A stretch of 1,545 bases of DNA, taken from the NCBI RefSeq assembly GCF_054482525.1, contig NZ_JBTHVG010000001.1, one strand, 5' to 3'. Within the stretch, counting starts at the first letter, position 1, and every line of letters starts with the position of its first letter. Shown here piece after piece: positions 1 through 1,428 of the stretch. Below the pieces are notes generated by a model, which did not search any database, was not told where the DNA came from, and saw nothing but the letters and a program-made list of their open reading frames with translations. Position numbers and translations under genes: made by a program. The DNA is from a plasmid.

Positions 1-49
1 ATGTGCAAATGTAATACCGTCACCCGCGACGATATTCCGTTTGCCATCT

Positions 50-74
50 GGTCAGGGCTTCGCCCCGACACCCC
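50..74. repeat. Left copy of a perfect 25-bp inverted repeat (ggtcagggcttcgccccgacacccc)
   Basis: Exact reverse complement of 1366..1390, verified base by base; the match stops on both sides. Confidence 0.9.
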
Positions 75-110
75 GCATCAGTGCGTACGTGCTCAATGTG
101 GTTTCCCGTT

Positions 111-172
111 CTCTTCCGCTTCCTCGCCCACTCGCTCACTAACGTTCGGTCGCTGGGGCTGCGGCGAGCGGT
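111..172 (+). other. ColE1-type primosome assembly site (pas/ssi)-like segment
   Basis: Exact 17-mer ctcttccgcttcctcgc (111..127) and exact 16-mer ggctgcggcgagcggt (157..172), separated by 29 nt of related sequence. This matches my recollection of the pMB1/pUC region just downstream of the ColE1 origin, where the spacing is 27 nt. A short ccgcatcag string sits just upstream (73..81), as in pBR322. Confidence 0.6.
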
Positions 173-476
173 GCCACCTCTCGCATGTTGTCGGTGATTC
201 CGCTGTTGTTCTTCTGGGGATGAGTCGTCAGACAGCCCTTCAAACGCGCTCAGAAGCTCTCAGACGCACGAAACGGGATTTAAATGCCCGTCAGGGCATG
301 GAAGGCGCGAAAAACGCTTACAGAGCGTTTCAGGAGGTCAGGCGCGCCGATACCCCTAGCCAGGGGCTTTCAGGTCGCCAGGAACCGCGTCAGCCCCCTG
401 CAAAGCCCATTTGCACGGTACAGGCAGCCACTCGGTTGGTAGGTGGTCGTAGACCGTCGGTGTTACAGCGATGGGG

Positions 477-526
477 GTCTGGGGTTCTCCCCAGACGGTT
501 TCCGGTTGCGCTCAAGGCGCTGCCGG
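477..526. other. Two adjacent strong stem-loops in a GC-rich, probably non-coding region (candidate structured RNA or origin secondary structure)
   Basis: Stem-loop A: gtctgggg (477..484), loop ttct, ccccagac (489..496), 8 perfect base pairs. Stem-loop B: ccggttgcgc (502..511), loop tcaag, gcgctgccgg (517..526), 10-bp stem with one mismatch and one G-T wobble. Further hairpins at 286..297 (gcccgtcagggc) and 312..330 (aaacgct / agcgttt). Confidence 0.45.
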
Positions 527-666
527 AACCGTGGCGGCTCGGTCGTTCTGGAGATCGGGGAGCAAAAACACGCAAGGGATTTTGAGGCGGCAAAAGAGCA
601 ATGCAGGATAGACAATCATGGTCAGAACGTTAACACGTAACCCCTGATTGTCCGCCTGCCGCTGGC

Positions 667-1146
667 TCAATTTGAAAACATGGCCATGATTCGGCGCTGA
701 ATATCACCGTCTTTGTTGACCAGTGTTTTAGTGACAAACGCCGCGTAGTTTTTAGATGTGTTGTATCCCTTCCAGACTTCATGTGGATCGAGTGCATACG
801 CACAAACCTTACCGGCAACAGGAATTCTGACTAACGCGTTTTTTGATTCTAAGTAGTTGAGCCAGCGCTTAATTGTGCTTCGGCTAACACCCAATTTATC
901 TGCTAAAAACTGCTGATCGGCAACAACAGCACCGCATGAGGGATCTATGTGCTCAGCTAAAAACGAGTAAAGCGGTATTGCTACAACTCCCTGCTTGTCC
1001 TTCGACAGTTCTCGGATCCTTTCCCAGCCCTTCTGATAAACCTGGGTGAATGGGCCGTTATTTTTCGGATCTGGTTCCGATTCTTTGTTTAATTTTTCCA
1101 GTTCTTTTAGACGCTTTTTTCGCTGCTCTTCAGTCCCGATATACAT
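667..1146 (-). CDS. Putative winged-helix DNA-binding protein, 159 aa; candidate plasmid replication initiator and/or autoregulator (Rep-like). Family not verified.
   Basis: Complete ORF on the minus strand: ATG at 1146..1144, stop TGA (tca on + strand) at 667..669, in-frame stop upstream at 1174..1176. GGAG Shine-Dalgarno (ctcc at 1154..1157 on + strand) 7 nt upstream of the ATG. The protein has a charged helical N-terminus (EEQRKKRLKELEKLNKESE) and a typical helix-turn-helix with following wing (ADQQFLADKLGVSRSTIKRWLNYLESKNALVRIP). The Rep function is inferred from context (upstream repeats, AT-rich tract, flanking pas-like and oriT-like DNA), not from recognised sequence homology. Confidence 0.8.
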   Translation of the reverse strand: MYIGTEEQRKKRLKELEKLNKESEPDPKNNGPFTQVYQKGWERIRELSKDKQGVVAIPLYSFLAEHIDPSCGAVVADQQFLADKLGVSRSTIKRWLNYLESKNALVRIPVAGKVCAYALDPHEVWKGYNTSKNYAAFVTKTLVNKDGDIQRRIMAMFSN

Positions 1147-1205
1147 GGTAAATCTCCACGGTCTAATGATGGCTCAAATATAAGCCATCATAGCTCAAAC
1201 GTAAA
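1147..1205 (-). promoter_or_regulatory. Candidate sigma70 promoter and RBS for the 667..1146 gene
   Basis: On the minus strand: -35 TTTACG (+ coords 1200..1205), 17-bp spacer, -10 TATATT (+ coords 1177..1182), then GGAG RBS (1154..1157) 7 nt before the ATG. The -35 is a 4/6 match to consensus; spacing is ideal. Prediction by eye only. Confidence 0.4.
1166..1191. promoter_or_regulatory. Perfect palindrome (9-bp arms atgatggct / agccatcat, 8-bp spacer) overlapping the candidate -10; putative operator
   Basis: Arms at 1166..1174 and 1183..1191 are exact reverse complements; the spacer caaatata (1175..1182) contains the candidate -10 of the minus-strand gene. This arrangement is typical of autoregulated plasmid rep or regulator genes. 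The palindrome is seen directly; operator function is inferred. Confidence 0.5.
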
Positions 1206-1222
1206 CCATGATAGGTCGACCT

Positions 1223-1272
1223 AGCTCACACATGCGTGAGCTAACCTTAGACCATGCATGCGTGAGCTAACC
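1223..1272. repeat. Iteron-like repeat cluster: two identical 16-bp direct repeats (catgcgtgagctaacc) 26 bp apart, the first embedded in a 7-bp-arm palindrome
   Basis: Exact copies at 1231..1246 and 1257..1272. Palindrome agctcac / gtgagct at 1223..1229 and 1236..1242. The core agct(c/a)a recurs at 1192, 1223, 1239, 1265 and 1284. Located just upstream of the candidate -35 of the HTH gene and next to an AT-rich tract (1276..1330). Confidence 0.75.
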
Positions 1273-1335
1273 CATAATGCAAGTAGCTAAAAAATCAATA
1301 ACTTACAAAATCGCCCTTAAATATCTTTTCTGCTG

Positions 1336-1365
1336 AAAGTGTTGCGCAAAGCGGAACACTTTTTT
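1336..1365 (+). terminator. GC-containing hairpin followed by a T-run; intrinsic-terminator-like on the + strand, or alternatively an oriT-proximal inverted repeat
   Basis: Stem aaagtgttgcgc (1336..1347) pairs with gcggaacacttt (1351..1362) with one mismatch, loop aaa, followed by further T residues to 1365. No convincing + strand transcript feeds into it, so function is ambiguous. Confidence 0.3.
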
Positions 1366-1390
1366 GGGGTGTCGGGGCGAAGCCCTGACC
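1366..1390. repeat. Right copy of the perfect 25-bp inverted repeat; coincides with the 5' part of the bom/oriT-like sequence
   Basis: ggggtgtcggggcgaagccctgacc is the exact reverse complement of 50..74. Confidence 0.9.
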
Positions 1391-1428
1391 CAGTCACAGA
1401 GCGATAGCGATGTGTATACTGGCTTAAT
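1366..1428 (+). other. ColE1/pMB1-type bom (oriT)-like sequence including the conserved nick-region motif gtgtatactggcttaa
   Basis: Recalled from the pBR322/ColE1 bom region: shared strings gggtgtcggggcg, tgacccagtcac, agcgatagcg and gtgtatactggcttaa occur in the same order and spacing, with scattered substitutions. By analogy the nick would lie in ctgg/ctta at about 1422/1423. Homology is from memory, not a computed alignment. Confidence 0.65.

Follow-up and report, generated by a model that had tools for sequence, protein, structure and literature searches.

The upstream region of repA in a 1,545-bp plasmid of the pKL1 family: a probable replication origin and probable self-repressed promoter

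Results

A small plasmid with a single credible gene

The window, by which we mean the whole stretch of 1,545 nucleotides analysed here, is the complete circular plasmid NZ_CP182202.1 of Escherichia coli EC130 (pig, China), with identity over the tested stretch and the same coordinates. The only credible gene of the plasmid is repA, and the control region considered in this study lies directly upstream of it (Table 1). The source record annotates a second ORF (1-585), which does not behave as coding. This record applies the label 'rep protein' to ORF 1-585 and describes the repA product as an 'HTH domain-containing protein'; the true initiator is the latter, and not the ORF that carries the name 'rep protein'. 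In two relatives (AP026470 and CP047681), the homologous product is named 'RepA plasmid replication protein'.

The prototype of this family is pKL1 (NC_002145, 1549 bp), from E. coli KL4. Judged by its sequence, the window plasmid is a member of the pKL1 or Col(MG828) family, a common group of cryptic one-gene plasmids: it is a circular plasmid of about 1.5 kb on the shared backbone, rep is its sole functional gene, and a homologous initiator, repeated sites upstream of its gene and an IHF box are all present. In PLSDB, 26 records cover at least 80% of the window; these are typed as Col(MG828), are mostly plasmids of 1565 bp and include the plasmid of E. coli ABU 83972. Of 5426 complete E. coli genomes, 33 contain the control region itself, at 98-100% identity, and in all 33 it is without any annotation. 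The Col(MG828) literature that we found consisted only of epidemiological typing papers. A ColE1-type replicon was considered and rejected: an Rfam scan of the window (E up to 1) detected no RNAI, RNAII, ctRNA or related family, its sole match being a sub-threshold, chance one inside rep, and the segment shared with ColE1-like plasmids is only the bom/oriT-like one.

Table 1. Features of the repA gene, its product and the upstream control region (positions in the window)
Feature	Position	Strand	Sequence	Remarks
repA	667-1146	minus		ORF; 159-aa proposed initiator/autorepressor; Pfam HTH_36, E 4e-6
Predicted recognition helix	RepA residues ~89-101		STIKRWLNYLE	
RepA model helices	RepA residues 38-47, 51-65, 78-85			followed by the recognition helix (89-101) and a beta-hairpin wing (106-118)
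Shine-Dalgarno	1154-1157	minus	GGAG	7 nt 5' of the repA ATG; read from the sequence
Three 21-bp-phased units	1159-1221	minus (rep-sense)	GGTCGACCTATCATGGTTTAC / GTTTGAGCTATGATGGCTTAT / ATTTGAGCCATCATTAGACCG	proposed RepA operator array
Operator palindrome (proposed)	1166-1191		ATGATGGCT-N8-AGCCATCAT	brackets the -10
Candidate -10	1177-1182	minus	TATATT	within the 8-bp spacer of the palindrome; read from 1182 to 1177
Candidate -35	1200-1205	minus	TTTACG	read from 1205 to 1200; 17-bp spacing to the -10
12-bp perfect palindrome	1212-1223		TAGGTCGACCTA	links the promoter array to tandem unit 1
Tandem unit 1	1222-1247		TAGCTCACACA / TGCGTGAGCTA + ACCT	near-perfect palindrome; holds 16-mer 1231-1246
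Tandem unit 2	1248-1273		TAGACCATGCA / TGCGTGAGCTA + ACCC	hemi-palindrome; holds 16-mer 1257-1272
AT-rich tract	1274-1335			candidate DNA-unwinding element
IHF consensus	1293-1305	plus	AATCAATAACTTA (WATCAANNNNTTR)	preceded by an A6 tract (1289-1294)
Hairpin	1336-1365	plus	AAAGTGTTGCGC-AAA-GCGGAACACTTT into T6	outer border of the divergent module; terminator-like

The predicted structure of RepA

An AlphaFold model of RepA, built from a family alignment of 10 sequences, predicts a core composed of a single winged helix (pLDDT 85-93 over residues ~41-110), with termini that are poorly predicted. When this model was compared with the PDB, the nearest folds were generic regulators of the MarR/ArsR/CodY type, together with TubR, none of them at E <= 0.001, and the Rep_3-type initiators (RepE, pi and pPS10 RepA) were absent from the top 50 matches. 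A PDB sequence search with the RepA family profile gave no significant match. The modelled fold says nothing beyond 'winged helix'. Among Pfam families, RepA has no match to Rep_3 (PF01051), nor to Rep_1, Rep_2, Rep_trans or the other HUH families, and no H-hydrophobic-H motif was seen on direct reading of the sequence; its match to RepL (PF05732) is weak (E 0.014), and it comes near no NCBIfam cutoff.

The candidate repA promoter lies within an array of phased half-sites

The initial annotation had placed a palindrome with 9-bp arms on the candidate -10, in what it considered a classic layout for autorepression. This palindrome is present: its arms (1166-1174 and 1183-1191) are 100% complementary and the -10 hexamer falls in the spacer between them. 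Perfect inverted repeats with arms of 9 bp or more and a loop no longer than 10 arose in 51 of 1000 dinucleotide shuffles of the window and in 7 of 1000 shuffles of the region, and the palindrome alone is only moderately unusual. The promoter that it would control matches the consensus at 9 of 12 positions and is one of only two promoter-like sites found by a scan of the window; it is also the sole sigma-70-like site on the minus strand of the window, and is correctly placed for repA.

The palindrome belongs to a larger arrangement, in which it is made by the last two of three half-sites phased at 21 bp. On the rep-sense strand, the three units that carry these half-sites run from 1221 to 1201, from 1200 to 1180 and from 1179 to 1159 (period 21, identity 71-81%), each bearing a TGAGCTA or TGAGCCA half-site, with the -35 and -10 hexamers falling in successive units. 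As the half-sites are exactly 21 bp apart, they lie on one helical face. The TGAGCCA variant of the heptamer is found at 1170, and the 12-bp palindrome that adjoins tandem unit 1 is possibly a degenerate pair of half-sites. The half-sites TGAGCCA, TAGACC and TAGGTC were assigned by eye, and the definition of a half-site beyond TGAGCTA is soft.

Tandem 26-bp units built from inverted half-sites

Two identical 16-mers, CATGCGTGAGCTAACC, noted initially as too long and exact to be a product of chance, occupy 1231-1246 and 1257-1272. Not one of 1000 dinucleotide-preserving shuffles, whether of the window or of the region, contained an exact direct repeat of at least 16. Each 16-mer forms the exact core of one of two 26-bp units, which stand in tandem and are 84% identical over 25 nt. 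In unit 1, the palindromic extension that had also been proposed pairs 1222-1232 with 1233-1243 at 10 of 11 positions, the first 16-mer forming the right half. Each unit is an inverted pair of TGAGCTA-type half-sites, of which the outer arm in unit 2 has degenerated to TAGACCA. The exact repeat extends to 20 bp in two 1565-bp relatives (L001 and L003); it is shorter in the window because of a 2-nt change at 1255-1256. The heptamer TGAGCTA, or its complement TAGCTCA, occurs four times in the window, always within 1191-1269, against 0.14 copies expected (whole-plasmid count).

An AT-rich tract with an IHF box, bordered by a hairpin

Beyond the repeats, as the initial annotation had indicated, the DNA becomes rich in A+T (70% over 1273-1335, compared with 49% in the window). 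Of all 40-bp stretches of the plasmid, the one at 1288-1327 is the least stable; its dG of -43.9 lies 2.8 sd from the mean of -56.1 (sd 4.4). Within the AT-rich tract, the IHF box is the sole perfect match to the consensus in the window, where 0.07 would be expected. No DnaA box was found in the control region: sequences matching TTWTNCACA with at most one mismatch occur only at 2-10 and 1411-1419, fewer than chance would provide.

The hairpin that follows has a predicted fold dG of -16.4 (z -2.2). A structurally equivalent hairpin of different sequence is found in pKL1 and in relative L002, and the hairpin is missing from several other relatives. Neither a promoter scan nor reading by eye revealed a plus-strand promoter able to feed it.

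A divergent module on a shared backbone

When the window was compared with a pKL1-type plasmid, the backbone proved to be 98-100% identical over 1-700; identity then declines through the 5' two-thirds of rep to about 50% (unalignable) over 1201-1350, and afterwards returns to 84-91%. RepA is 81% identical to the RepA of L002 and about 78% identical overall to pKL1's own RepA (about 80% in round figures). By segments, residues 61-159 are 94-97% identical to pKL1 RepA and residues 1-25 just 38%; 14 positions differ in residues 26-58, and a further difference, K93I, lies in the recognition helix. Among codons for identical amino acids, about half or more differ from the pKL1-type gene in residues 1-92, and 3 of 32 differ in residues 126-159. 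From this drop in identity and these codon differences, we conclude that the N-terminal two-thirds of RepA and the control region form a module that diverged long ago and sits on a common backbone.

The plasmid and pKL1 share a near-identical backbone, a single gene, a homologous RepA and the -10 block ATGATGGCTTAKATTTGA, which is conserved between them although its flanks are unalignable. The order of elements is also the same in both, namely the hairpin, the AT tract with its IHF box, two tandem units of 25-26 bp, the promoter half-sites and repA. At the homologous position, pKL1 and L002 have GTTGTCGCATCC-N-GGATGCGACAAC and, 25 bp away, a second, half-degenerate copy. However, the pKL1 half-site (TGCGACA/GCAACA) is unrelated to the TGAGCTA of the window, and the IHF box of pKL1 has one mismatch, whereas that of the window is perfect. 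Furthermore, the 9-bp-arm palindrome over the -10 is absent from pKL1, where the best inverted repeat has arms of 4 bp. Thus, the operator layout seen in the window, for all that it is present there, is not a constant of the family.

Across nine divergent relatives, the layout of the control region recurs with half-site sequences that are unrelated. In seven of the nine family members compared, tandem palindromic units of 24-26 bp lie between -113 and -160 relative to the ATG, and homologues of tandem unit 1 are present in pKL1 and in seven other relatives. Of 11 members, 10 have an IHF-like box that departs from the consensus at no more than one position; in nine of these it has the same orientation and lies 159-195 bp upstream of the ATG. 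In the nine members, the half-site hexamer of each plasmid is private to its own control region or to its specificity group. The helix STIKRW goes with the TGAGCTA half-site in the window and in pSYM4, the helix STIIRW goes with GCGACAAC/GCAACAAC half-sites in pKL1 and in a plasmid of K. michiganensis (L004), and the remaining recognition helices pair with other half-site words. In these pairings the half-site type tracks the recognition helix of RepA, and the RepA of the window appears to read a different DNA word from that read by pKL1's.

Also with the STIKRW helix, pSYM4 (NZ_KM107840, 1304 bp, from E. coli G3/10) contains GAGCTA seven times. Its tandem units are 26 bp long and share the core CATGCGTGAGCTA with those of the window, and TAGACCA...TGAGCTA is found in both of the pSYM4 units. 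The 21-bp register is also present (TGAGCTA at -108, -87 and -66), as is a palindrome, GGTAGCT-tatttttg-AGCTACC, whose 8-bp T-rich spacer makes it the equivalent of the -10 palindrome in the window. Unlike those of the window, the tandem units of pSYM4 are in the opposite orientation to rep and all six TGAGCTA copies are direct; its backbone is also different, and its RepA has a shorter N-terminus.

Finally, a conserved 60-bp block at 1360-1427 is the sole non-rep DNA common to all of the small family members compared (1240-1443 bp). The same block is found in mobilizable ColE1-like plasmids of 3-6 kb that have other replication systems, and its distribution fits an oriT; in principle the block might also belong to the origin and not be an oriT alone.

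Discussion

A control region that would serve both replication and autoregulation

We consider it likely that 1159-1335 is a cis-acting control region in which the vegetative origin and the self-repressed repA promoter of a pKL1-family plasmid are combined. In such a region, RepA would recognise the TGAGCTA-type heptamer, and the tandem 26-bp units would act as an array on the origin side, on which RepA would form a nucleoprotein complex. RepA bound to the phased sites over the -35 and -10 would occlude RNA polymerase and so turn off its own synthesis, by which the copy number would be set. Bending by IHF, together with the RepA oligomer, would open the AT-rich tract, where the host replisome could load.

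The sequence features, their statistical enrichment, the layout retained across the family with co-varying sequence and the presence of two specificity types in one strain are observed directly; RepA binding, autorepression and initiation at the AT-rich tract in the window variant are inferred by homology with a system that is already known. In the passages of PMC3832669 that concern pKL1, which cite Burian et al. (2003, Biochemistry 42:10282), oriV is placed upstream of rep and is reported to contain an IHF box as well as binding sites for Rep, and hexamers of pKL1 RepA are likewise reported (PMC3832669). For the relative pAES1, the same source describes inverted repeats in an analogous place and a cloned REP region that served as the replicon in shuttle plasmids (PMC3832669). 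The mechanism in the window follows this published pKL1 paradigm, and the plasmid is an uncharacterised specificity variant within it. The suggestion in the initial annotation that operator and origin roles may coexist agrees with this picture, and with the retention of the layout in nine relatives while the half-sites change with the recognition helix. In the pKL1 papers of Burian et al., autoregulation by RepA has reportedly been shown.

Classical iteron origins, such as those of pSC101, R6K, F, RK2 and pPS10, place repeats for a Rep_3 initiator beside an AT-rich unwinding element, contain an IHF site and have at the rep promoter an inverted repeat, akin to the origin repeats, that serves autorepression. 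The control region of the window shares this functional logic: its repeats adjoin an AT-rich element, it contains an IHF site, and an inverted repeat overlies the rep promoter. However, it lacks DnaA boxes, and its 159-aa initiator is a single winged helix (HTH_36), in contrast to the WH1-WH2 Rep_3 type. An iteron array would comprise at least three direct repeats of 17-22 bp; repeats are present in the window, as two 26-bp palindromic units and three 21-bp-phased units, though they do not make up a uniform direct array. The proposed origin would work like a classical iteron origin but stands outside that class: its initiator is of another type than Rep_3, there are few units and these are palindromic, and no DnaA boxes accompany them. 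The initial comparison with iteron-type origins therefore holds in the functional sense and does not extend to Rep_3 iterons. RepL (PF05732) replicons offer a more distant likeness, in that a relative with 51% identity (L012) is annotated as RepL and shows repeats together with palindromes on the upstream side of its rep gene; here the half-sites and backbone differ, and the protein of the window falls below all NCBIfam cutoffs.

Other readings of the region

The region might instead be no more than the repA promoter with its operators. The origin would then have another site, of which the 1360-1427 block and the GC-rich, ColE1-like backbone (1-600) are examples. That the 1240-1443-bp members have no conserved non-rep DNA other than the block speaks for this, as does the lack of a DnaA box in the control region, and positions ~100-180 of the backbone presumably resemble, by comparison with pBR322, the part of ColE1 downstream of bom, which we have counted on the same side. 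Several observations make it an unlikely reading, however. The block is shared with mobilizable ColE1-like plasmids that replicate by other systems, which fits an oriT, and an Rfam scan detects neither RNAI nor RNAII. The tandem units, the IHF box and the AT tract lie 75-190 bp upstream of the promoter, farther than a simple operator needs, in a layout that the family conserves, and window-type and pKL1-type plasmids, which share a backbone, coexist, so that specificity must sit in the divergent module. The reported position of the pKL1 oriV, as given in PMC3832669, with its Rep sites and IHF box upstream of rep, also stands against an origin in the block or backbone.

A further possibility is that the palindromic units form the double-strand origin of a rolling-circle plasmid, with RepA nicking inside the palindrome or next to it and the hairpin or backbone providing the single-strand origin. 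Historically, the RepL/pSN2 family has been placed among the rolling-circle plasmids, and to this family point both the weak Pfam match of RepA and the RepL annotation of relatives with about 51% identity; palindromes and hairpins are, moreover, typical of dso and sso elements. Yet RepA matches none of Rep_1, Rep_2, Rep_trans and HUH, shows no H-hydrophobic-H motif on direct reading, and is modelled as a plain winged helix, with MarR/ArsR-type regulators as its closest structural matches. The combination of phased, repeated half-sites with an IHF box and an AT tract is the signature of a theta origin melted by its initiator, and the pKL1 literature, as represented in PMC3832669, describes an oriV with Rep-binding sites; rolling-circle replication from the palindromic units is, in our judgement, highly improbable. 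As for the repeats being accidents of chance or scars of recombination without function, the 9-bp palindrome taken by itself does reach a frequency of about 5% in whole-window shuffles. The 16-mer and heptamer counts given above do not behave in this way, the layout recurs with different sequence in nine relatives, and the region is all but invariant (98-100% identical) in the 33 E. coli genomes. The shuffles and the nine-member comparison effectively refute a chance or scar origin of the repeats.

Specificity, coexistence and plasmid typing

E. coli O7:H4 strain MIN14 (PMC8703133) carries a window-type plasmid of 1565 bp (RepA WP_000275450.1) together with a pKL1-type plasmid of 1552 bp, which encodes exactly the RepA of pKL1 (WP_000469298.1). 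A third Col(MG828) plasmid of this strain, of 1507 bp, encodes a distant winged-helix Rep of 146 aa and has a GATAAC-type palindrome. MIN14 is the one strain in which co-residence of the window-type and pKL1-type plasmids was verified; CP027128 and CP027131, considered as a second case, come from separate sources (AR_0374 and AR_0372). Since plasmids that share a backbone coexist, replicon specificity must sit in the divergent module, and coexistence is what would be expected if that module bears the determinants of replicon specificity and incompatibility.

The control region of the window opens no new biological question, and the practical value of the analysis is modest: it supplies a site-by-site annotation for a region that was bare in 33 complete E. 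coli genomes, and it corrects the labelling of the initiator in the source record. In addition, several Rep/site specificities, found together in one strain, all fall under the Col(MG828) type, which matters for plasmid typing and for the prediction of incompatibility.

We would go one step further only tentatively, and with rather more doubt than conviction, in suggesting that the window-type (TGAGCTA) and pKL1-type (GCGACA) RepA/site modules are natural, orthogonal initiator/origin pairs that have been retargeted by very few residues (K93I and those in 26-58), a switch that would be what allows as many as three 'Col(MG828)' plasmids to live in one cell. If this were true, the PlasmidFinder type Col(MG828) would lump together several mutually compatible replicons, and the 1.5-kb family would provide a very compact model for the co-evolution of initiators with iterons and for escape from incompatibility. 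Within the TGAGCTA group itself, the half-sites are fixed and it is the spacer between them that varies (ACAC versus ATGC).

Mosaic structure and other features of the plasmid

On sequence comparison, the window departs from its 1565-bp relatives, which are plasmids of the same type, immediately downstream of the repA stop codon (611-652 and ~653), where it carries a 21-bp deletion together with clustered substitutions. Here the window agrees with the pKL1-type backbone rather than with the 1565-bp relatives, and is thus a mosaic in which a window-type rep/origin module adjoins pKL1-like sequence 3' of rep. The features of this region, and others considered here, are collected in the table.

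Features of the window and of a related chromosomal locus
Feature	Position	Strand	Remarks
GC-rich ORF	1-585	+	labelled 'rep protein' in source record (WP_224706374.1)
Imperfect hairpin	611-621 / 642-652		at mosaic region 3' of repA
Perfect inverted repeat, 11 nt	660-670 and 857-867		CGCTGGCTCAA / TTGAGCCAGCG
Hairpin, 12-bp stem, then T6	1336-1365	+	terminator-like on + strand
Conserved block, ~60 bp	1360-1427		inverted copy within 48-83
Locus with window-type plasmid, repA WP_000275450.1	1216598-1222708		L020, E. coli L26 chromosome NZ_CP146250.1

The 11-nt inverted repeat includes TGAGCCA, a variant of the half-site proposed as the RepA-binding word, and its copies lie on the repA stop codon and within repA itself. 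These could be additional RepA sites, or the repeat could have arisen by chance.

The conserved block is the sole non-rep DNA common to the window and the smallest family members (1240-1443 bp), and is found too in mobilizable ColE1-like plasmids of 3-6 kb. The block, which contains TATACTGGCTTAA, resembles the bom (oriT) region of ColE1/pBR322. Its inverted copy comprises 34 nt at 50-83 with 88% complementarity and, as the plasmid is circular, a segment of ~204 bp is therefore flanked by inverted repeats. A hairpin also occurs in L002/pKL1 at the position equivalent to that of the T6-tailed hairpin, with a different but compensating sequence. A promoter scan found no + strand promoter upstream of the window hairpin, which may act as a terminator or as a signal for single-strand initiation, or may mark a module boundary.

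The reading frame of the GC-rich ORF is broken in pKL1 and in two other relatives (L010 and L012), and its substitutions favour codon position 2, not position 3 (5/14/6, 10/18/13, 9/15/15 and 12/19/15 for positions 1/2/3). This ORF is probably not a gene, and its label is misleading for that reason. In the same source record, the true homologue of pKL1 RepA is named only 'helix-turn-helix domain-containing protein'.

Related replicons in E. coli MIN14 and L26

Three plasmids of 1565, 1552 and 1507 bp (L014, L015 and L018), all typed Col(MG828), occur together in E. coli MIN14 (PMC8703133). Their Rep/site modules differ from one another; the 1507-bp plasmid encodes a distant winged-helix Rep of 146 aa and has a promoter overlain by a long GATAAC palindrome. 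It appears that the Col(MG828) replicon type tracks the shared backbone and not Rep specificity.

The window-type plasmid in the E. coli L26 chromosome is flanked by two copies of IS26. The boundary between plasmid and IS26 corresponds to approximately window position 1235, the centre of the tandem palindromic unit 1, and the putative origin is therefore divided at that point in this locus.
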